A DNA stretch of 46,971 bases from Minisyncoccota bacterium (GTDB lineage Bacteria > Patescibacteriota > Minisyncoccia > Phycocordibacterales > UBA9973), in contig JANNRS010000033.1 in assembly GCA_031401615.1 (NCBI GenBank), positions 1-46,971 of the forward strand. The letters are read 5' to 3'. The position numbers and the translations under genes are program-made. Under the pieces are notes generated by a model. That model made no database searches. It was not told where the DNA came from and saw only the letters and a program-made list of their open reading frames with translations. This document shows, piece by piece, positions 1 to 26,414 of this stretch. Position 1 is the stretch's first letter. Each line of letters begins with the position of its first letter.

Positions 1-1034
1 CCAGCAGCATCCCAAGCTAGATAACCTTCACCAGAAGTTGGGTTTGACGGTGTAGCTGAAGCAGCATTTGGAAGTCGGAGTCCTTGTAGAGCGGTAGTGC
101 TGTGAGTAGTCAAACCAAGATCAATGTAAGAAAGAGCCCCAGCTGTTAAATTAATTGCTCCGGTTGTGTTGCCGATATTTGTCAGAGCTGTACCGGTCGC
201 GTTGATATTTGTTGCCCCAGTTATTGTTAAACCTCCAGTGCCTTGAATGAGACCAGAGCCAGCAGTTAGCCCAACAGTGGTAGCAAGCCCTGCGATAGTA
301 AGCGCGCCAGTAGAAGTTATTTTATTTGAGGAAGAGAAAAACTGAATGTCACCAGTTGTGCCGGCGTTAAATGTTAGAGCATTTGAACCAGTTGCTTTTA
401 ATCCTGCTAAAGTTGCATGACCTAAAATAAGTGCGCCAGAAGTAAGGACTGGAATTTGGTTATCAGTGGCACTTTGTGCTGGAGTAAATCCTCCGACGGT
501 TCGAGAGTTAATCGCAAAGCCAGAAGAGACCACCTGTTGCCTTGGAGAAAGAGTTTCAAATACTTCATCACCTCCAGTGGTACATGATGCCCCGACTCTT
601 GTTGCAACTTCAACATTTATAAAAGCTTGGTCATCAGTAAAAGTATAGTCAAGAGTATCTCCTCCAGCACCGGTGTCTCCGATGTTCCCATTGAAAACTC
701 CTTCACGAGTTAAGATAGTCATCGTAGATGGAGCAGCATAAGAAAGTGGCCAGACTTGGTTTGGGTTTGCGGTTCCACCAGTAGCTACATTCCAAAGAGA
801 AAATTTATAACAATAATTGATTCCACTTGGGCCACCAAGAAGATTGCCACTACTATCCATCAAACGTCCTTGAAAATTTATCAGACTTGGAACACCGGCA
901 GCAGCGTTAAGCTGTGAAGAAAAAATTGGTATAAAAACTGAGATAAAAAATAGAACTGAAACGCAAAAAGATACAACACTAAAACGTGTTTGATATAGCT
1001 TGCGTAGACTGAAAAAAATATTACGCGGTTTCAT
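1..1034 (-). CDS. Large secreted/surface protein, N-terminal part only (C-terminus lies beyond the left window edge)
   Basis: My own translation from ATG (complement of 1032..1034) gives [58 protein letters not shown]... It stays open to base 1. It is absent from the ORF track because it is truncated. It has an N-terminal hydrophobic anchor followed by T/G/A/N-rich repetitive sequence. Confidence 0.6.
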
Positions 1035-3200: not shown

Positions 3201-3944
3201 ATGGAACAACAAGAACAAACACAAAATGAAACTACTGGGGCACCAAAAAAGAGTATGAGTATTAGTATTCCAGCAGCTATTATCACCGCCGGGGTTGTTA
3301 TCGCTTTAGCCCTTGTCTTCTCAGGTAAAGGAAGTGGAGTCGTCAAGAATAATCAAGTAAATAACAAACAACCAACATCAGAGGAACAAGCTCCCCCACA
3401 AAATGTTTCTATTAAGCCTACAGATCATGTTCGTGGTGATATAACAAAAGCAGAAGTTGTTATTGTCGAATATTCAGATAGTGACTGTCCGTTCTGCCAG
3501 CGTTTCCACGAAACTATGAAAGATGTTTTAAAAAAATATGGTAATAAAGTAGCTTGGGTCTATCGAAACTTCCCTCTTGATATCCACCCAAATGCTAATA
3601 ATGAATCCTATGCAACAGAATGTGTAGCAAAACTAGGTGGTAATGATGCATACTGGTCATACCTTGATAATGTCGTAGATATTACTGTCTCTCCAGATAA
3701 GAGTAAATCGGTTCTAACAAATATGGCAACAGCTCTGGGTGTTGAAGCTAAGTCTTTTGAAACCTGTATAAATAGTTCAGAGATTAAGGATTTGGTTAAT
3801 GCACAAATAGCAGAAGCACAAGCTCTTGGGGCTCGAGGTACCCCTTATAGTATTGCTATTGGAAAAAATGGTCAACAGGTAGTGATCTCCGGAGCGCAAC
3901 CAATTGATCAAGTATCAAAAATCATTGATGGCTTGATGAAATAA
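3201..3944 (+). CDS. DsbA-family thiol:disulfide oxidoreductase, membrane anchored
   Basis: CPFC active site (YSDSDCPFCQRFH), a TM anchor (ISIPAAIITAGVVIALALVF) and a GTPY cis-Pro-like motif. Start chosen at MEQQEQ (ATG 3201) rather than the track start 3030. Confidence 0.8.
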   Translation: MEQQEQTQNETTGAPKKSMSISIPAAIITAGVVIALALVFSGKGSGVVKNNQVNNKQPTSEEQAPPQNVSIKPTDHVRGDITKAEVVIVEYSDSDCPFCQRFHETMKDVLKKYGNKVAWVYRNFPLDIHPNANNESYATECVAKLGGNDAYWSYLDNVVDITVSPDKSKSVLTNMATALGVEAKSFETCINSSEIKDLVNAQIAEAQALGARGTPYSIAIGKNGQQVVISGAQPIDQVSKIIDGLMK

Positions 3945-5386: not shown

Positions 5387-7087
5387 CTACCCTCCTTGAT
5401 GAGGATAGTCATGACGACGTTTATTTATTTGTTGAATTAGGTCAGATAGACGATCTACTTCTATTTCATTACCTTCTGTCTCTGCTTGTCTTAAATCTCT
5501 TGAATATTCTATTCGTACGTTAGTTAAAAATGTATCAGTAATTTTTATAACAAGTTCTTGTGCGATCTTAATTTGGTCATCATTACTTAAAGATGAATAA
5601 TCTTTTTCCACGATAGCTAAAGCCCTATCGAGCCTATCTTGTGGTATTGCTGGCGCTGAGAAAAGAATATCCCCGGTAAATAGCGTGTTAAGGGGTTCAA
5701 TTACCTTCTCTATGGCATCTGAACCAAAACATTTCCGAATGGCTGTAAGTCTTTCATAAGGCGTACTTTCTTCAGTATTTTTTATTTTATCTTGACCAAC
5801 AGGAGAAACAAGAAGTGTATTTACTTTTTTGAGTTCTTCGACAATGCTTTCACTTGGCATACCTGTTTCTTGAGAAATCATTGTGATATAAAGATTCTTT
5901 TCCATTGCAGATGCGACACGAGCTAAAAATGGAAAGAGTTTTTCTTTTATTGTCCGAACAAAAACGTGTGGAGACAATGACTGCTTTTTAATGAGATAGA
6001 GGTGGTGCTCAATAAAGTGCTTACTCTCTTTAAGTTTTTCTTTCCAAGCATCAGCACCTTGCTCTTTAATAAGATCTGCTGGATCTACTCCTTCTGGTAG
6101 AACAACTACTTTAGGGTTCATCCCTAGAGAAAGCGCTACTAAGGCTGCGCGATCCATCGCTTTTTGTCCCGCTTCATCTCCATCAAAAGCTAGAAATAAA
6201 TGTGGAGTTAACCTAGAGAGTACAGCTAGATTCGAAAACGGATCTTGGGCAGACTCTTCTGAAACAGCGGTCCCTGAAGAAGCAACCGTGTTACGAAATC
6301 CTGCTTGGTGAGATAAAACCAAATCAAACTGACCTTCAACTAAAATAGCAAAATTATTTTTTTTAATATGAAATTTTGCTTTATCAAAACCAAAAAGAGT
6401 TTTTGACTTTTGGAAGATTTCAGTTTCCGGAGAGTTTAAATACTTTGGCCCTTCACCGTCATCAGGAAAACTTCGACCTGAAAATCCAATCACTCGACCA
6501 CTGGAATCATTCAGTGGAAAGAGTATTCTTTTTCGGAATCGATCATAGACCTTACCTTCAGTTTTTTTAATGAGCCCAGCTCGAACTGCAATAGATTGAT
6601 CTTTGTCATTTTTACACAGACTCTCTATTGTTCGCCATTCGTCGGCGACATATCCTATACGAAAGGCATCAATAGTTTCTTTCAATAAGCCACGTTTTTC
6701 TAAATAAGTTTGTGCTGAGCTAGACTCATTTAGGAGCTTTTGATAGATATTTGTAGCTTTCTCAAGAATTTCATAGACTCCGTCTGTATCAGAGACCAAG
6801 GGATTGTTGGTAAGTGTTACGCCAGCCCTGTCAGCTAAAAGTTTAAGCGCACCTTTTTTATCTAGCCCTTCAAACTGTTCAACAAAAGTAAAGATGTCTC
6901 CTTTGGCTCCACAACCAAAACAATAGTAAAGTCCTCTCTCTGCAGAAATGTTGAAAGAAGCAGTCCGTTCATTATGGAACGGGCACTTGGCCTTGAACTG
7001 GGAACCTGATTGCTGAACAGTTATGTATGAAGACAGTACTTCGGTAATAGGCAATCGATCTTTGATAGTCTCGAATACCGTTTTCAT
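5387..7087 (-). CDS. dnaG: DNA primase
   Basis: CHC2 zinc finger (CPFHNERTASF...CFGCG) and Toprim motifs (VEGQFD, FDGDEAG). Confidence 0.9.
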   Translation of the reverse strand: MKTVFETIKDRLPITEVLSSYITVQQSGSQFKAKCPFHNERTASFNISAERGLYYCFGCGAKGDIFTFVEQFEGLDKKGALKLLADRAGVTLTNNPLVSDTDGVYEILEKATNIYQKLLNESSSAQTYLEKRGLLKETIDAFRIGYVADEWRTIESLCKNDKDQSIAVRAGLIKKTEGKVYDRFRKRILFPLNDSSGRVIGFSGRSFPDDGEGPKYLNSPETEIFQKSKTLFGFDKAKFHIKKNNFAILVEGQFDLVLSHQAGFRNTVASSGTAVSEESAQDPFSNLAVLSRLTPHLFLAFDGDEAGQKAMDRAALVALSLGMNPKVVVLPEGVDPADLIKEQGADAWKEKLKESKHFIEHHLYLIKKQSLSPHVFVRTIKEKLFPFLARVASAMEKNLYITMISQETGMPSESIVEELKKVNTLLVSPVGQDKIKNTEESTPYERLTAIRKCFGSDAIEKVIEPLNTLFTGDILFSAPAIPQDRLDRALAIVEKDYSSLSNDDQIKIAQELVIKITDTFLTNVRIEYSRDLRQAETEGNEIEVDRLSDLIQQINKRRHDYPHQGG

Positions 7088-7089
7088 TT

Positions 7090-10000
7090 TTATTCTTCGT
7101 GATTCTTAATATCGTTAACCTTGAGTACCTTTCGATCTCGGAAACCGGTCCCTGCTGGGATTAATCTTCCAACAGTAACATTTTCTTTGAGTCCTCGGAG
7201 AGTATCAGTCCCACCTTTAATAGCGTTGGTAATCAAAACACGATTTGTGTTTTGGAAAGAGGCGGCTGAAATCCAACTCTTAGCAAAGAGGGCTGTCTGA
7301 GTAATACCCAAAATGATAAGGTCAGCCTTGGCTTCTCGCAGTCCCATATCTCGCATCTTAGCATTTTCTTCAATAAGATCAGTAACTTCAATAGTGTCTC
7401 CAATAGAGAAAGCACTTTCTCCAGCATCTTTAACTTTGCGTCGTGAGAACATTTGTCTAACTATGATTTCCAAATGCTTTCGAGCGATTGCGGCACCTTG
7501 AAGCTCATAAACTTTACTAATTTCTCGAACAATGTAGTCTTCAGCCATTTCTTTTCCTCCAAATTCATAAACTTCATCAATGTTAGCTGAACCATCTGTC
7601 AGAAGTTCACCAGCTATAACATCTTGACCTGCTTTTACAATAGCAATACGACGTGGGTTAACAACATATTCAACACTTTCTTTTTTAGCTTCTTTATCAC
7701 TAGAGAGCACAACAATTATTTTGTCTGTCCCATCTTCTTTAATTTCAGAAACAGTACCAGCATATTTATTAACAAGTGACGGATTTTTGATTGTTCGACA
7801 TTCGAATATTTCTTCAACACGTGGAAGTCCCGCTGTAATATCGATACCAGCAAGTCCGCCGGCGTGGAAGGTTCGGAGAGTGAGCTGTGTCCCCGGTTCA
7901 CCAATGGCTTGAGCCGCCACAATACCAACAGCTTCACCTTTTTCAATTAAGTGTCCCCTTCCGAGGTCAAGGCCGTAACATGTTCGGCAAATACCGTAGA
8001 CTGTTTTACAAGTCATAGGAGTTCGGACGAAAACTTCCATCACACCTTTTTGTTCTACTAGAGTTGCATCATCTTTCATGATGAGATGTCCTTTCTTAAA
8101 GAGAGTTGTGCCATCTGCTAGAGTAATATCCTTAGCCAAAATTCTACCTCGAATTGTCTTACCAATTGGAATTTCAAGTCCAGAAATAACTTCTTTAATA
8201 ACCCTCTTTGAAAGTTTAGTTCCACAATCCTCTTCAGTAATAATGACGTCTTGTGCCACATCAACCAGACGACGAGTTAGGTAACCAGCTCGAGCAGTAT
8301 TAAGCGCTGTGTCGGCCAAACCTTTACGAGAACCGTGGGTAGTGATGAAATATTCAATAGGAGAAAGTCCTTCCTTATAAGAAGGAATAATCGGGAAATC
8401 AATAGTTCGTCCTGTAGTATTTTGAATCATACCCTTCATACCAGCCATTTGAGTCACGTTACTCATACTTCCTCGAGCACCTGAGGTAATCATGTCGTAG
8501 ACAGAGCTGTGTTTTTTAACAGTTGCAGTCAAGGCTTTTTCAATTTCACTTTTAGCTTTATTCCAAACTTCAATAACTTTTTGGAAACGTTCCTCCTCTG
8601 AAAGAAGCCCGTCTTCAAATTGAGTCTTGATAGCATCTTCCATAGCACGATGATTGGCAATAATAGCTGGCTTTTCTTTTGGTACAACAACATTATCAAT
8701 CCCCCAAGTTACACCAGAGCGAGTTGCGTATTTATATCCAAAATTTTTGATTCTATCAAGAACCGGAGCAATAGCGGCAATACCAAAATCAGAAATTAAA
8801 GTATCAACTATACCAATAATCTTCTTAGCGGTAACTTCGTCGTTCGTATAGGGAAACTCTGCTGGTAAGATAGAGTTAAAGAGTAGACGTCCAGCTGTTG
8901 TCTCAAAAGGTTTACCGCCAAATTGTTCATACTTTGGATTATTGGTTCCGAGAACGAATATCTTGGCACGATATGATACGGCACCTAAGTCATAAGACAT
9001 AAGCGCTTCATTTGGACTAGCAAAATACATACCTTCGCCCTTGTCACCATCAACAATAGAAGTCATCCAATAACAACCGAGCACGATATCCAACATTTTT
9101 GATGACACAATTGGGTCACCGTTTTGTGGTTTAAGTAGGTTCTTATCAGCTGCAACAATAGTTTTTGCTTCATGTTGAGCAGTATCAGAGAGCGGTAAAT
9201 AGACTCCCATTTGGTCACCATCGAAGTCAGCGTTAAAAGCTGGACAAACGAGTGGGTGGACTTGGATAGCATTACCTTCAATCAACACAGGCATAAATGC
9301 TTGAATACCAAGTCTGTGGAGTGTCGGCGCTCGGTTTAAGAGTACATACTTTCCAGCAATAACTTGTTCGAGAATTGCCCAAACTTCTGGAATACCATCT
9401 TCAATCAATTTGTTAGCACCACGAATATTAAATGCCAATTCTTGTGAAATTATTTTCGAAATTACAAAGGGCTTGAAAAGCTCCAGCGCCATGTGCTTTG
9501 GAAGTCCACATTGATTAAGTTTTAGATTTGGACCAACAACAATAACACTTCGCCCAGAATAGTCTACACGCTTACCGAGTAAGTTCTGTCGGAACAAACC
9601 TTGTTTACTTTTGAGGTTATCGGAGAGAGATTTGAGGGCACGACGTTGTGCCTGACTCATGGCTGGAGAATCCTGCCCAGCAATACTGTTATCAATAAGA
9701 GCATCTACTGCTTCTTGCAAAATACGCTTTTCGTTTCGGAGAATAACATCTGGAGCACCTATTTCTTTTAATTTTCGAAGACGATTGTTTCGATTGATAA
9801 CACGACGGTAAAGGTCGTTGATATCAGATGTCGCATGTCGACCACCTTCAAGAGCCACCATCGGACGAAGGGCTGGTGGGATAACTGGAATACGAGTTAA
9901 GAACATCCATTCAGGGCGAATACCGGCATACATCATGCCTCGAATAAGTGAAAGGCGCTTGTTGAGTTTTTCACGCTCGGCGGCCCCAGCTTTTTCCAAA

Positions 10001-10710
10001 GATTTTTCTGTCTTGGTTTTGAGTTTTGCTAAATCAATTTGATTGAAAAGTTGGAAAACAGCTTCAGCACCAATACCTGCTTCAAAGGCAGAACCGTACT
10101 TGAGTGAGTAGTGATGATAAGCAATTTCGTTGAGAACTTTACCTGTTCGGATTTCAGCAATTTCCTTTTTTGTATTTAGAAGTAGTGTTTTCAGTTTGTC
10201 ACGAGTTTCGTCGTCAGCTGCATTTTTTAATTTATTTTTAAATTCAGTATCAAGATCGACAATAATACGATCCCTTTCATCTTCATGAACAGAGACAATA
10301 ATATAGCCAGCGAAGTATATAACTTTTTCAAGTTCAGTAAGCGGAATACCAAGTAAGATACTCATTCTTGAGGGCACACCACGGAGGAACCAAATATGAG
10401 CGACAGGAGAAGATAGGTCAATGTGACCCATACGATCACGACGAACAATGGATTGTGTGATTTCAACACCACATTTTTCACAGATAATACCAGCATAACG
10501 AATACGCTTGTACTTTCCACAGTAACATTCATAATCTTTCTCTGGACCGAAGATGCGCTCGTCAAACAGGCCACCTCTTTCAGATCGGCCAGTACGATAG
10601 TTGATAGTTTCGGGTTTTGTAACTTCACCATATGACCATTCAAGGATCTTCTCAGGAGAAGCAAGCTTCAGAACAATTTTATCGAAATTTGTTGTATCTA
10701 ATGTTTTCAT
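7090..10710 (-). CDS. rpoC: DNA-directed RNA polymerase subunit beta prime
   Basis: NADFDGDQM catalytic motif, a zinc-binding CYCGKYKR...CEKCGVE segment, and full-length similarity of the 1206-aa product. Confidence 0.97.
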
Positions 10711-10727
10711 AAATTTATTACTTCTGA

Positions 10728-13700
10728 TTATTGTGCTGTTACTTCTTCTGCTTCTGCGTCGACGACCTTTGGTGTCCCTCCTTGCAAATCTACGTCCAGT
10801 GATAATCCTCTCAAATAGTTAAGCATCACCGAGAACGATGCCGGTGCATTCGGCTCTCTGATTTTCTCTCCTTTAATGATGGCATCAAATGTCGCAGCTC
10901 GGCCACGAATATCATCAGACTTGATCGTTAACATTTCACGCAAAATATGTGATGCTCCGTATCCTTCCAAAGCCCAGACCTCCATTTCCCCAAAACGCTG
11001 TCCTCCAGACTGAGCTTTACCTCCGAGTGGTTGCTGAGTAATGAGTGAGTACGGACCGATTGAACGCATGTGAATCTTGTCTTCCACCATGTGGTGCAAT
11101 TTCAAGATGTACATATAACCAACTGCAATATCTTGTTCAAATTTTTCACCAGTTCGCCCATCGTAAAGTGGCACACATCCGTTTTCTGGAAAACCTGCCT
11201 CTTTAAGCTCAGCTTTAATCTCTGCATCAGAAGCTCCACAAAATGGTGGCACTATAGCTTGATAACCAAGTTCGTGAGCAGCCATACCCAAGTGAAGTTC
11301 AAGAATTTGTCCTAGATTCATACGAGATGGCACGCCGAGTGGAGTAAGGACAACGTCAACAGGGGTACCGTCTTCCATATATGGCATATCTTCTTCTGGA
11401 AGCACCACTGAAATAACACCTTTGTTTCCGTGTCGTCCAGCTAGTTTATCTCCAACTGAAATATTTCGAAGTTGTGCTACCTCAATAACAATTTTCTTGA
11501 TAACACCACTTTCTAGATTGTGACCTTGGTCACGTGAGAAAATCTTTACACGAATAATACGTCCACGCTTTCCATGGTCCATTTTCAGTGAGGTATCTTT
11601 TACATCACGAGCCTTTTCAGCAAAAATACTTCGAAGCAATCTCTCTTCTGGAGTAAGTTCTGTTTCACCTTTTGGAGTAATTTTCCCAACAAGTAAATCT
11701 CCCTCTTTAACTTCTGCTCCCACGCGGATAATACCGTCTTCGTCCAAATCTTTAAGACGAGTTTCTCCAACATTTGGAATATCACGAGTTGTAACTTCCG
11801 GACCAAGCTTGGTATCACGAACAACGCAAGTGAACTCAGCGATATATATAGAAGTAAATTTTGAATCCTTGATCAGTCTTTCAGAAAGGATAATCGCATC
11901 TTCGTAGTTGGCACCGTTCCAAGACATAAATGCCACGCGCATATTTTGTCCAAGCGCGATTTGGCCATGATCTGTTGTTGAACAGTCTGCAAGCAAATCT
12001 CCCTTCTTAACTTTTTGTCCAATAGTAACAACAGGGCGTTGATGCAGTGATGAGAAGTTGTTTGTTCTTTGAAAGTTCACCAAAAAATAGTGATGATCTT
12101 TACCACTTTTATCTCCCTTTACTGTGATCTTTGTTGCATCAAGAGACATAACTTCACCAGCTTCTAGTGCCATAACAAGACGACCTGAATAAGGAGCGGC
12201 TTCTTGCTCTATACCGGTTGCCACTAGTGGTGCTTCAGGACGAACAACAGGCACAGCTTGCTTTTGCATGTTACTTCCCATGAGGGCACGGTTAGCTTCA
12301 TTATGTTCGAAGAACGGGATCATACTAGTCGCCAGAGAGAAGGCTTGGTTGGTAGCCACGTCAATAAAATCAACCTTTGATTTATCAACAATACCTGGCA
12401 AAGTACGAATACGTGCTTCAACCTGACTTGGTAGATGGCCCTTTTCATCATAAGCAGTTCCAGCGTGGGCGATAGTATATCTTTCTTCTTCCAGAGCATT
12501 TAAATAAACAATTTCTTCAGTAATTTTCCCATTCTTAACTTTGACATAAGGAGTTTCAATAATACCAAAATCATTGATGCGAGCATAAATAGCCAAACGC
12601 AAGATAAGTCCAATGTTTGGACCTTCAGGGGTGTGGATAGGACAAACACGACCGTAGTGAGAAGTGTGCACGTCACGAACTTCAAGCGTGGCACGCTCAC
12701 GAGTCAAACCTCCGGGGCCGAGGGCTGAGACAGTTCGAAGAAGCTCAATTTCAGAGAGAACATTTTCTTGGTCCATGAATTGAGAGAGTTGGTTAGTTGT
12801 AAAAAATTCTTTAATACGAGCTTGGAGTGGACGCTGGTTAACAACTTGAATAGGGAGTGCGTTCATTGAGTCAATGGTACTCATACGGTCTTGCACGTTT
12901 CGCTTGATCTGAGTCATACCCATAAATATTTTTTGTTGAAGCAGTTCGCCAACGAACTTCACACGTCTTGAACCGAGGTGATCGATATCGTCTGGTTTTG
13001 ATCCAGGGGTCATGTTTAATGTTATGACATGATTGATTATCGCAGCGATATCTACCGCCGAGAGGGTCTTGCGAGCCATTTCCTTATCGCCCATATCGAG
13101 TTCAAAGCGGTTATTAAAACGAAATCGTCCAACTGGAGAAAGATCATAACGTTCCTCACTGAAAAGTGTAGTTATAAAATCTTTAGCATTGTCAGCAGTG
13201 GCTAAATCTCCATCTCGAAGTTTTCGATAAATTTCAACGTAAGCTTCTTGTGAACTTTTGCTAATATCTTTCTCTAGACAATGAGCAATAACGCCTTTGG
13301 CTACATCTCCCTTAAATAGTTTCTTTATTTCTTCATCTGTAGATACTCCGAGTGCCCGAAGAAGCGACACAATTGGGAATTTGCGCTTCTTGTCGATACG
13401 AACAAAGATTTCTCCAGATGGATCAGACTCTATTTCAATCCAAACACCACGGTTTGGGATAATCTTGGCGCCAAAGAACTTCTTGCCTTTTACTTCAAGT
13501 TCAGTAAAAAAGACACCTGATGATCTTGAGAGTTGTGGTACTAGAACTCTTTCAACGCCGTTGATGATAAATGTCCCGTGGTCGGTCATCATCGGAATAT
13601 CAGACATGAAAATTTCCTGTTCTTTTTCTGTACCTGTTTGTTTGTTAGTTAGTTTTATACGCGCTTTAAGCCCACTATCATATGAAAGTTTATTTTCTTT

Positions 13701-14609: not shown

Positions 14610-15317
14610 TTAATTCTTCTGGCTTTCTCCTAAACCAGCTCCTGAGCTGGTCGGACGAACAATCTTTGATTGTTTTAGTCGCCAGGCTTCTATCTTTTTA
14701 TGGTCTCCCCCCACTAGAACAGGTGGGACTTTGTGCTTTTTGCCTTTATAAATAAGGATTTCTGGGCGAGTATAGACCCGTGGACTAGCTATTCGGGCTT
14801 CTTCTAAAGACTCTTTATCCCCTAAAACTCCAGGTATTTGACGGACTATGGCATCAGTCATAACGAGTGCAGGCAGTTCCCCCCCTGTCAAAACATAGTC
14901 ACCGATACTATATTCATCAGCTTTCAATATTTTACGTACCCGATCATCTACCCCTTCGTAACGTCCACAGATAAACACAACGTCGCTATAGCTTTTCGCC
15001 ATTTTCTTGGCTATGACATTGGTAAACATTTTGCCACTTGGAGAAAGCATTACCACCTTTATTTTTTTTGACTTGGGTGTCGGACTCCCAAGTTTAAGTT
15101 TTGAATAGGCGCGAAGTATTGGCTCAGCAGTCATGACCATACCGGGACCACCACCATACGGGCGAAGGTCAGTTTTACTGTGTCGGTCTTTTGAATAATC
15201 ACGAATATTAAGTACAGCAAAGTTCGCCAACTTTTTATCTTTGGCACGTTTAAGCATCGCTTCCCCGAGGTAGCTTTCAATCATTTCTGGAAATATGGTT
15301 AGAAAATGAAATTTCAT
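14610..15317 (-). CDS. trmD: tRNA (guanine37-N1)-methyltransferase
   Basis: MKFHFLTIFPEMIESY..., GGGPGMVM, DYVLTGGELPALVMTDAIVR. Start set at the MKFHF methionine. Confidence 0.9.
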   Translation of the reverse strand: MKFHFLTIFPEMIESYLGEAMLKRAKDKKLANFAVLNIRDYSKDRHSKTDLRPYGGGPGMVMTAEPILRAYSKLKLGSPTPKSKKIKVVMLSPSGKMFTNVIAKKMAKSYSDVVFICGRYEGVDDRVRKILKADEYSIGDYVLTGGELPALVMTDAIVRQIPGVLGDKESLEEARIASPRVYTRPEILIYKGKKHKVPPVLVGGDHKKIEAWRLKQSKIVRPTSSGAGLGESQKN

Positions 15318-15392
15318 ATTTAGATAGTAGTGTTTACTGAGTATAAAGTCAAAAGGTGCCACAATTTGTGGCACCTTATACAATACTTTATT

Positions 15393-25782: not shown

Positions 25783-25839
25783 AATGTTTAAATTATACTA
25801 AAGCAAACAAAAAAAAGCAAACAAAAAGCCCTAAGAACT

Positions 25840-26002
25840 TGGTTGCCAGACCTGGAATCTCACTACTCGCTTCGCTGCGTTTTGACAACCTCTCGGTTTT
25901 CAACGCTCGCTTCACTCACTGCTTTCCTCCACAGGGAAACTCCCGTTTCCCTGACACCCTTCCCGTTCTCGTCTAGGTCGCACCGTTCACCATGTTCACT
26001 GC
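25840..26002 (-). other. GC-rich module A ending in a displaced tRNA T-stem/acceptor fragment with encoded ACCA
   Basis: On the minus strand the module ends ...GAGATTCCAGGTCTGGCA-ACCA. The 13-mer TCCAGGTCTGGCA repeats at 26003..26015. Internal hairpins are CAGGGAAA/TTTCCCTG (25932..25953) and AACC-GAGA-GGTT. The track ORF 25843..26076 is probably spurious. Confidence 0.5.
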
Positions 26003-26097
26003 TGCCAGACCTGGACTCGAACCAAGATAATATCCTTCAGAGGGATACGTCCTACCCGCCTAGACTCGACGTCTAGTCGAGGCTGGCCATTAGACGA
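26003..26097 (-). pseudogene. Disrupted tRNA-Gln(CUG)-like copy
   Basis: 49 nt (26007..26055) are identical to tRNA-Gln 26125..26173. The D-loop is split after the conserved GG by a ~31-nt GC-rich palindrome (26056..26086). The 3' acceptor is TCTGGCA but the 5' strand (TAACTCT) cannot pair with it. Confidence 0.55.
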
Positions 26098-26119
26098 AGA
26101 GTTAAACTTTTATACAAGG

Positions 26120-26190
26120 CTGGGAGACCTGGACTCGAACCAAGATAATATCCTTCAGAGGGATACGTCCTACCATTAGACGATCTCCCA
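26120..26190 (-). tRNA. tRNA-Gln (anticodon CUG)
   Basis: Manual cloverleaf: TGGGAGA/TCTCCCA acceptor, GTCT/GGAC D-stem, TATCC-CTCTGAA-GGATA anticodon arm, CTTGG-TTCGAGT-CCAGG T-arm. 71 nt, no full encoded CCA. Confidence 0.9.
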
Positions 26191-26317: not shown

Positions 26318-26372
26318 TTGCCAGACCCGCCTCGACTTGCAGAAGCTTGTCGACGCGAGGCGGATCTGGCAA
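26318..26372. repeat. GC-rich palindromic hairpin carrying both orientations of the TGCCAGA acceptor-like heptamer
   Basis: TTGCCAGACCCGCCTCG, a 21-nt loop, then CGAGGCGGATCTGGCAA. The stem is 17 bp with one mismatch. Its arms resemble the insert in the pseudo-tRNA D-loop. Confidence 0.7.
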
Positions 26373-26414
26373 TCTGGCTTACTATAGCGAAAAATAGCTT
26401 ATTACTCAAGACCT

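Follow-up and report, generated by a model that had tools for sequence, protein, structure and literature searches.

Integrative elements reportedly use sublocations in tRNA genes that Williams is said to have set out in 2002, and the CIMEs (cis-mobilizable elements) of Streptococcus are non-autonomous derivatives of integrative elements. To our knowledge, the small genomes of the Candidate Phyla Radiation (CPR)/Patescibacteria carry few annotated mobile elements or non-coding features. Here we describe a 146-nt block at positions 26002-25857 of a 46,971-nt stretch of DNA from a Minisyncoccota bacterium (contig JANNRS010000033.1, assembly GCA_031401615.1; the whole stretch is referred to below as the window). 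The block, which stands next to a tRNA-Gln gene, is one copy of a widespread and so far unannotated CPR/Patescibacteria repeat family with members of ~0.15-0.25 kb. On balance it seems probable that it is a mobile element of CPR bacteria, non-autonomous and site-specific, which inserted at the 3' end of a tRNA-Gln(CUG) gene and resembles MITEs (transposable elements of the miniature inverted-repeat kind) or a mini integrative element, and that the 13-nt repeat around it is a target or att duplication. Coordinates of the window locus are read on the minus strand, and L-numbers (L001 etc.) designate the stretches of DNA from relatives and family carriers that were compared with it.

The Element Copy Beside tRNA-Gln

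A preliminary description of the window had reported a G+C-rich module of 146 nt here, containing two hairpins and bounded by a repeated 13-mer with an ACCA terminus, and all of these features were recovered. The G+C content of the block is 52-56%, that of the remaining window roughly 30-45%, and the block is flanked by two copies of TCCAGGTCTGGCA that are identical at 13 of 13 positions. The first copy of this direct repeat (26015-26003) consists of the T-stem 3' strand and acceptor 3' strand of a truncated tRNA, and the second (25856-25844) runs into ACCA at 25843-25840. The 3' terminus is accordingly composed of a T-stem 3' strand, an acceptor 3' strand, A and CCA, with no T loop in this terminal piece, and, as had also been claimed, the window's five intact tRNA genes all lack an encoded CCA.

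The block begins with a left end (26002-25983) that reads G-CAGTGAAC-ATG-GTGAAC-GG; two GTGAAY motifs recur at this position in the short-gap members of the family (L033 at tRNA-Thr, L184/L194, L116, L189 and L171). It continues with a 5' antisense arm, TGCGACCTAGACGAGAAC (25982-25965), which is a degenerate antisense of the T loop, T-stem 3' strand and acceptor 3' strand. When aligned with TGCCAGACCTGGACTCGAAC the arm matches at 15 of 18 bases with a 2-nt gap, and folding predicts that it pairs with 26021-26003. In position and kind it agrees with the family rule, under which the arm ends ~10 nt before the motif GGTC of the core, so that the window copy has both an antisense arm at the expected distance ahead of its core and a gene-end repeat behind it. 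The conserved core (25970-25857) comprises a linker, GGGAAGGG; hairpin 1, CAGGGAAAC-GGGA-GTTTCCCTG (25953-25932); the segment GTGGAGGAAAGCAG; a middle hairpin, GTGAGT-GAA-GCGAGC, with tandem G.A pairs (25919-25905); hairpin 2, TTGAAAACC-GAGA-GGTTGTCAA (25903-25882); and a purine-rich tail ending in GTGAGAT. The middle hairpin is optional, being absent from many members and replaced by Watson-Crick variants in others, and a right-end hairpin is absent from the window copy. With model R2, a covariance model built from 50 members with the window left out, the core scores 85.7 bits (E 5.4e-21) and is the sole match in the 47-kb window; with model R1 it scores 116 bits.

The motif GTGA(A/G) occurs five times in 25857-26002, twice at the left end, twice in the middle-hairpin region and once at the right end, where a rough estimate of the chance expectation for the GTGA tetramer in a 146-nt block is ~0.6; these copies may be protein-binding repeats. 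The linker, the 5' half of hairpin 1 and its loop (25964-25941; family consensus GGGAAGGGGTCGGGAAACGGG) contain four G3 runs with short loops, formally a G-quadruplex motif, whose formation would be in competition with hairpin 1. The motif is not universal, as loops of other kinds occur in some members.

Anatomy and Distribution of the Family

A BLAST search of relatives with the module, as the preliminary description had proposed, returned further copies, and relatives also proved to have module-free tRNA-Gln sites. The BLAST matches were in L033 and L029, where the blocks follow other tRNAs (fMet and Thr) and each ends in a copy of the 3' end of its own tRNA. A covariance model of the core added copies after tRNA-Asp and tRNA-Thr in L033 and after tRNA-Gln in L041 and L053, as well as a partial copy in L075, bringing the number per locus to three within 20 kb in L033 and two in L041. 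L033, a Parcubacteria contig, also has an FMN (flavin mononucleotide) riboswitch and a LOOT RNA, at 6188-6306 and 15238-15362. A strict pattern used for a metagenome scan, GGTCGGGRAA N4-14 YCCCGTGGAGG, matched at least 120 contigs, and a scan of 100 sources gave 99 matches.

The family is multi-copy and polymorphic in its distribution. A tRNA lies upstream on the same strand in 59 of 117 pattern instances, usually at 17-84 nt and in a few cases at up to 255 nt, and 30 anticodons are represented. Copies were also found at the 3' ends of transfer-messenger RNA (tmRNA) genes in L085 and L103, and, in antisense orientation, at the 5' end of dnaK (L086) and of a glycosyltransferase gene (L166, L097, L158 and L149), where the first 15-20 codons of the target are duplicated. 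Searches of the window, L041 and L121 against Rfam 15, at the gathering threshold and at E up to 10, returned only tRNA, with everything else far below threshold. We found no description of the family by keyword and sequence-string searches, or by searching the text of Weinberg et al. 2017 (PMC5737381).

Family members share an architecture of arm, core and repeat. The core is ~110 nt long, with the consensus order linker GGRARGG; GGTC; hairpin 1, GGGAAAC-GGGA-GTTTCCC; GTGGAGGAARGCAG; the optional middle hairpin, which either is GCGAGC-GAA-GCGAGC, with its G.A pairs in tandem, or is Watson-Crick paired throughout; hairpin 2, TTGGAAACC-GWG-GGTTTCCAA; and the purine-rich tail, often ending in GTGAGAT. 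In tRNA-linked copies the 5' arm reproduces the tRNA in reverse complement, beginning at G53, where the T loop starts, and in some copies continuing through the acceptor strand into the flank. The repeat behind the core begins within the T loop or T stem, ends at the end of the tRNA or +1 to +12 or more beyond it, and is identical at up to 33 of 33 positions. In L123, and in L149 at a glycosyltransferase gene, the repeats are identical over 33-42 nt. Of the 52 tRNA-linked copies, 30 had a flanking direct repeat scoring at least 12, as had 19 of the 50 others, compared with none of the shuffled controls. Two arrangements are seen between tRNA and arm: either a long, perfect palindrome that resembles a terminator lies there, or, as in the window and the rest of the short-gap class, a pair of GTGAAY motifs. 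In tRNA-linked copies the inner ends of the arm and the repeat show, by eye, AAC ... GTT.

Hairpins 1 and 2 covary. Together, 98.6% of their helix cells are paired and 176 are changed on both sides, a value reached by 0 of 500 shuffles, and slid controls gave 37-71%. Helix 1 is 99.5% paired, with double-sided changes in three of its eight pairs, and helix 2 is 97.7% paired, with such changes in six of nine. Wobble pairs offer a weak test, as the alignment was fitted to the model, but among 1492 cells there were 12 G-U/U-G and 11 A-C/C-A combinations; this lack of a G-U excess over A-C provides no evidence for a structure read as RNA on the tRNA strand, and a DNA-level hairpin fits the structure at least as well as an RNA.

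Variants, Cargo and Signs of Movement

Sites with and without the module can be compared at syntenic tRNA-Gln genes, which lack it in L004, L008, L009, L010 and L013 and carry it in L041 and L053. One subfamily is identical over ~235 nt, from TTTAATGAC to GGAGTTTAC, at five or more unrelated sites that are not beside tRNAs: L126 (3700-3990 and 6300-6590), L104, L165, L142 and L135. Its ends carry similar imperfect hairpins on both sides with no target duplication, which resembles the palindrome-associated transposable elements (PATEs) of the IS200/IS605 type. Nor do cores follow particular targets. Site-specific core lineages, clustering by tRNA type, were considered and rejected, as only 4 of 24 nearest-neighbour cores share a tRNA label, and pairs of cores that are 84% identical stand at tRNA-Gly and tRNA-Lys, and at tRNA-Ile and tRNA-Val, with arms that match their own tRNA each time.

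Tandem arrays occur in L154, L121, L180 and L108. In three of these contigs (L121 ~700-960, minus strand; L180; L108 ~3400-3640, minus strand) an unrelated conserved block of ~110 nt, here called core B (AGCCGGAAGCGGG.ACCCGCAA...GAGTACTTAGTGCGC...CACTTAGTAACTCGTGAC), lies between an antisense arm and a repeat of the tRNA-Gly 3' end, and so occupies the slot of the core described above (core A), in tandem with it. Core B likewise has no match in Rfam. Larger cargo is found in L041, where a restriction-modification cassette at 7520-11011 lies between two module copies and is bounded by 81-bp inverted repeats. It encodes a helix-turn-helix regulator, a 357-aa open reading frame (ORF) without a Pfam match, and a LexA-S24-N6/N4 methyltransferase fusion, and in the second module copy the loop of hairpin 2 is enlarged by a 45-nt insert. 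Another cassette, in L046, carries a large serine recombinase and lies within inverted repeats of at least 50 nt that start in the 3' end of tRNA-Thr.

Search for a Mobilising Enzyme

No recombinase or integrase was recognised among the ORFs of the window, which were judged by position and first residues only, with no family scan, and none recurred within 6 kb of 99 copies of the element, where ORF clusters consisted of synteny genes only. We therefore consider the element to be non-autonomous. No full-length relative with a tyrosine integrase and the same att arms was found in the compared DNA. Among the Pfam matches listed for 73 proteins from contigs of the L126-type subfamily, the only recombinases were two large serine recombinases, and Y1_Tnp and OrfB_IS605 were absent from the 25 of 110 families listed for these proteins.

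Recombinases near tRNA genes in related contigs were of the large serine type only. Their genes (PF07508 plus a zinc-ribbon domain) are convergent to tRNA genes and lie 17 nt to 1.8 kb downstream of them, at 104-1582 and 15443-16480 in L046, 7511-8812 in L088, 14339-15472 in L004 and 7188-8222 in L006 (all minus strand) and at 285-1735 in L203. A further gene, in L132 (6582-8210, minus strand), directly follows the terminal repeat of a module. No long direct repeats were found around the large serine recombinase genes; those of L046 are the inverted ones noted above. TTCGAA in the T loop is palindromic, with CG at its centre, and could be a crossover site for a large serine recombinase. If the enzyme crosses over there, products in both orientations would be explained; we regard this as a lead.

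The tRNA-Gln Locus and Its Relatives

Three tRNA-Gln-related units stand in tandem at the window locus: a hairpin that we call H1, an intact gene, and a broken copy with the element. The intact tRNA-Gln(CUG), reported in the preliminary description, was found by ARAGORN and Rfam at 26190-26120 (59.8 bits). With its complementary flanks of 16 bp it spans 26206-26105, has the acceptor strands TGGGAGA/TCTCCCA, and gives an inverted match of 23 nt at 96%. This pairing of the flanks (26206-26184 with 26127-26105), which adds 16 bp to the acceptor stem, is the longest among 286 tRNAs. The runner-up, with 13 bp, is the tRNA-Lys of L171 (2100-2200), which also stands ahead of a truncated tRNA copy and module. 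Extended acceptor-flank pairing was considered as a general CPR trait and rejected, the window tRNA being the extreme case among the 286.

The same programs called the second tRNA-Gln only weakly (26070/26066-26003/26010; 32.7 bits, model positions 9-63 only). The two copies have 56 nt in common at 96% identity (26056-26001 and 26174-26119), within which lie the 49 identical nt that had been noted before, and the tRNA body is the same in both. The second copy (26097-26003) extends from the D arm to the acceptor 3' strand and is broken in the three ways originally listed: its acceptor 3' strand is TCTGGCA, as opposed to TCTCCCA in the intact gene; no strand complementary to TCTGGCA adjoins it on the 5' side, where the 5' acceptor strand is missing; and its D loop is interrupted by a palindromic insert at 26086-26055. 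It thus lacks the complete cloverleaf and paired acceptor stem of a functional tRNA.

The missing strand lies further upstream. Hairpin H1 (26372-26318) consists of TTGCCAGATCCGCCTCG, a 21-nt loop and CGAGGCGGGTCTGGCAA, with 17 bp that are 94% complementary. Its 5' arm, TGCCAGATC, is the 5' acceptor strand that the second tRNA-Gln copy has lost, and its 3' arm (26327-26319) is an additional, third GGTCTGGCA, so that native-type acceptor strands TGCCAGA/TCTGGCA enclose a hairpin in place of a tRNA body. A promoter-like site, TTGAGT and TATAGT with a 17-nt spacer (26409-26381; -35 at 26409, -10 ending at 26381), lies ~9 nt upstream of TGCCAGA and is probably the promoter that originally belonged to the tRNA-Gln gene. 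L001, the closest relative, has TATAGTA ~10 nt ahead of tRNA-Gln, and its acceptor strand, TGCCTGA, is of the same type. Acceptor stems of tRNA-Gln in relatives fall into two types, one with TGCCAGA/TCTGGCA (L013, L053), to which TGCCTGA of L001 belongs, and one with TGGGAGA (L004, L008). As acceptor stems of the first type occur in relatives, the promoter-proximal strands of H1 look like native gene ends. The interior of H1 and the D-loop insert are akin to one another, and the three units have similar 3' flanks (TCTGGCA-AGTTGTATA at H1, TCTCCCA-GCCTTGTATA at the intact tRNA and TCTGGCA-ACCA-AGTTCTTA at the terminal repeat); it looks as though two stem-loops exchanged bodies at this locus. 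The palindrome shared by the D loop and H1 was rejected as a repeat family of its own, because no further copies were present in 2.1 Mb of compared DNA.

Two smaller features accompany these units. The 5' acceptor-type strand GCCAGAT is doubled in tandem at 26364-26380 (AAGCCAGAT-TGCCAGAT), and when the whole 541-nt region is folded to minimum free energy, the terminal GTCTGGC at 25851-25845 becomes the partner of the outer copy. On the plus strand, the 14-nt unit AAAGCAAACAAAAA occurs exactly twice in tandem at 25800-25827, between the element and a promoter-like TAGTATAAT that belongs to a type IV pilin gene (25782-25246).

Next to the locus lies a CTP synthase gene whose product shares 83% identity with that of a metagenome-assembled genome (MAG) of Candidatus Nomurabacteria. 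The contigs of the 80 best relatives all look like CPR/Patescibacteria MAGs, although several of the records are labelled Gammaproteobacteria, Bdellovibrionales or unclassified "bacterium", and the order pyrG followed by tRNA-Gln(CUG) downstream is found in many relatives. L171 has the same composite as the window, at tRNA-Lys, with an intact tRNA bearing a flank stem, a truncated second copy, a module and a repeat. L008 (4633-4775) has tRNA-Gln, 30 nt, and then a 45-nt copy of the segment from anticodon loop to 3' end, with TCTCACA in place of TCTCCCA and no module, and this copy looks like another att-type scar at the same tRNA. T-arm-like fragments lie behind tRNA-Gln in L004.

Interpretation and Alternatives

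Among the possibilities raised in the preliminary description was a miniature cis-mobilisable element, and this is the one that the evidence supports: the family is large, repeats of tRNA ends flank its members, module-free sites exist, identical copies occur at unlinked positions, and some copies form arrays. The window copy itself would then be mobile, and would act as DNA rather than as RNA. The element opens with a short left end that bears the two GTGAAY motifs, continues with the antisense copy of the region from T loop to acceptor and with the core, and closes with a right end, GTGAGAT. In the mechanism that we propose, the antisense arm could pair with the upstream tRNA 3' part or with the downstream direct repeat, and, together with the core, form a folded, cloverleaf-like site. 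This site, rather than any protein gene of the element, would be recognised by a recombinase or transposase supplied in trans. At the window locus, the receiving tRNA gene, of TCTGGCA type, may later have lost its 5' acceptor strand and gained the D-loop palindrome, its function then passing to the neighbouring intact tRNA-Gln copy.

Several observations weigh against a mobile element of this kind. No mobilising enzyme was found among the proteins surveyed, and neither an excised form nor an empty allele of the exact window locus was recovered. L001 offers no direct before/after comparison for the window copy, because the contig of this closest relative stops exactly at the tRNA-Gln 3' end (3255-3326), and the central join of the two tRNA copies (26145-26036) comes from one assembly. 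Repeat lengths range from ~9 to >55 nt, unlike a simple target duplication of fixed length. The repeat pairs at dnaK and at some glycosyltransferase genes differ almost only at synonymous sites, as if they came from different lineages, and in L123 the repeats are identical at 33 of 33 positions while the closest core is at another tRNA, which is unlike a simple element-borne att copy. The loop of hairpin 1, mostly of GNRA type, and the strongly conserved core would also suit a functional RNA.

A more far-reaching version, which we hold to be doubtful, is that the element retargets itself, the target being set by its antisense and sense arms and not by the sequence preference of a protein, with the arms rewritten at each new target. 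The arms would close the core into a double-stranded mimic of the target, and a structure-specific recombinase acting in trans would pair this mimic with the chromosome. Such self-retargeting would explain near-identical cores with locally matching arms next to 30 or more tRNAs, next to tmRNA, and also at dnaK and glycosyltransferase genes, where they occupy the 5' end. It would also explain the unrelated core B in the same slot, the gene-sized cargo (restriction-modification system and serine recombinase) between inverted copies, and the large serine recombinase genes convergent to tRNA genes, which would be the candidate enzyme.

That GNRA-type loop is one reason to ask whether the core is instead a structured non-coding RNA whose arms act at the RNA level, a possibility we judge to be unlikely. 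As a switch, its antisense arm would pair either with the tRNA 3' half, blocking maturation, or with the downstream repeat, and the core would be a sensor or protein-binding domain; as a scaffold plus guide, comparable to the omega/reRNA that serves TnpB or to the guide with which a CRISPR-associated transposon homes, its 3' repeat would direct a nuclease or recombinase to the tRNA gene. Two strongly covarying hairpins and an optional third with compensated variants are what such an RNA would have, a conserved scaffold followed by a variable, target-identical segment is the layout of a guide RNA, and the succession sense, antisense, sense is attenuator-like, with the whole 541-nt region folding far better than shuffles (z = -7.4). 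The module alone, however, folds no better than shuffles (z = -1.2), G-U pairs are not in excess, and Rfam has no match. A long terminator-like palindrome often separates tRNA and module, and no module promoter was noticed in the sequences read, with the promoter scan covering the window only. At protein genes the orientation is reversed, the arm being sense and the repeat antisense to the mRNA, and therefore no single RNA-level role fits both cases. For the guide version in particular, there is no conserved motif like a target-adjacent motif (TAM) at the left junction, and no TnpB, IscB or Cas protein was seen nearby in the ORF clusters or among the matches listed in one Pfam summary.

Rather improbable, in our view, is that the family consists of single-strand-DNA transposon derivatives of IS200/IS605 type, that is, PATEs moved by a Y1 HUH transposase via end hairpins, the left-end hairpin of tRNA-linked copies being formed by the tRNA 3' part and the antisense arm. 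The L126-type subfamily argues for it, with its paired end hairpins, its lack of terminal inverted repeats and target duplication, and its constant ends at unrelated sites, and stems without wobble bias together with GCGAAGC mini-hairpins would suit folded single-stranded DNA. Hairpins at both ends without target duplication are confined to that subfamily. The tRNA-linked copies stand between long direct repeats, which IS200/IS605 elements do not create, and they have neither a right-end hairpin nor a constant flanking tetranucleotide; the window copy, with its 13-nt flanking repeat and no right-end hairpin, is of this kind, and the families listed for the L126-type contigs did not include the expected transposase proteins. 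We give very little credence to a decaying local tandem duplication of tRNA-Gln with random filler, or to an assembly artefact. Three tRNA-Gln-related units do stand in tandem, and 56 nt that are alike in two of them would break short-read assemblies, but the supposed filler is a conserved family member, scored at 85.7 bits by the independent model and matched in at least 120 contigs, and both flanks were recovered base for base in the independent Logan assembly of SRR20217205, in which the break falls inside the 56-nt repeat. The L171 composite shows that the window arrangement is neither a one-off nor an accident of assembly.

The other proposals of the preliminary description can be placed against the same results. 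Its suggestion of a mere decayed tandem duplication does not survive the discovery of further copies and of empty sites in relatives. That of a decayed att scar holds only in part, as the strong structural conservation across hundreds of copies means that the core is not decaying filler. An expressed tRNA-like RNA is left without support by the Rfam result, the wobble counts, the intervening palindrome and the fact that CCA is not a feature of the family.

We also rejected a number of other identities for the block. A tmRNA or permuted tmRNA is not found in the window by ARAGORN or by Rfam at E up to 10, and the element is multi-copy; copy number and the lack of an Rfam match likewise rule out RNase P, signal recognition particle (SRP) and 6S RNA. 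A protein-coding module was rejected because neither the 57-aa frame of the Logan caller nor a 77-aa plus-strand ORF is conserved, and the optional middle hairpin would break any reading frame. A single match in IMG/VR was a chance match inside a gene, which removes the case for viral origin. The ACCA that is extra relative to the H1 flank recalls a copied mature tRNA, but such a retro-derived 3' end is not a family trait, since CCA is present where the gene lacks it only in the window and L200 among ~50 copies.

Significance and Comparison with Known Systems

These findings point to an annotation gap, as a very common and easily modelled element, present in at least 120 contigs, has no match among RNA families or in the literature searched. 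The family breaks assemblies at tRNA genes, gives rise to pseudo-tRNA calls such as the "tRNA-Gln" at 26070-26003, and duplicates the ends of essential genes. The contig breaks in L001 and in the Logan assembly are examples of what is probably a general fragmentation of CPR assemblies at tRNA genes by these elements. In marking the ends of tRNA, tmRNA, dnaK and glycosyltransferase genes as recombination hot spots, the family could inform MAG curation and strain tracking. It also poses a mechanistic puzzle, in that the same core at many conserved targets, with local inverted and direct arms, is explained neither by plain target duplication nor by integrase att sites. Should the target indeed be set by the arms, the family would amount to a system of programmable insertion that needs only ~0.2 kb in cis.

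The window block resembles tmRNA and tRNA-like RNAs in its tRNA-like 3' terminus and in the matching 5' strand upstream, but it differs from tmRNA in having no ARAGORN call and no T loop in the terminal piece, in a CCA that the family does not share, and in copy number, which reaches three in 20 kb in L033. One subfamily shares with IS200/IS605 PATEs the hairpins at both ends without inverted termini or duplication, and the family layout of scaffold and then target-matching segment is that of TnpB omega-RNA. Unlike either, tRNA-linked copies have long direct repeats and no TAM-like constant flank, with no TnpA or TnpB seen nearby and no omega-RNA-type match in Rfam.

Further parallels come from CTX-phi type elements, whose integrating form is folded single-stranded DNA, and from integrons. 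The order target, cargo, inverted copy, loop and target is that left by integration of a folded hairpin attP, as in the CTX-phi type of integrative mobile elements exploiting Xer recombination (IMEX), and in both cases the fold has a stem that duplicates the target in double-stranded form, but here the target is not dif and the element is ~40 times smaller, with no replication genes. In common with integron attC sites and clusters of attC sites lacking integron-integrases (CALINs), the family has an imperfect inverted repeat (arm and repeat) around a variable or structured centre, hairpins conserved as structure, and tandem units with short or gene-sized cargo (the L041 restriction-modification cassette; the L121 and L108 arrays), and in tRNA-linked copies the AAC ... 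GTT that arm and repeat carry on their inner ends, noted by eye, also recalls attC. In contrast to attC, the centre is strongly conserved in sequence and the arms copy the neighbouring gene in place of R and L boxes. Its arrays start at tRNA genes and not at attI, its flanking repeats exceed by far the shared 6-7 nt of integrons, and no IntI was seen, no search aimed at IntI having been made.

The family is also comparable to integrative elements that cross over in the T loop, and to CIMEs. No tyrosine integrase was found nearby, the family element measures just 0.15-0.25 kb, in place of arm-type protein sites it has a covarying hairpin core with an antisense arm, and one conserved core serves at 30 or more tRNAs and at protein genes, all of which set it apart. 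What it has in common with them is a direct repeat that begins in the T loop and reaches, or passes, the 3' end of an intact gene for tRNA or tmRNA, the restoration of the gene end on one side, tandem accretion at the regenerated site, and a small element that carries no integrase of its own.

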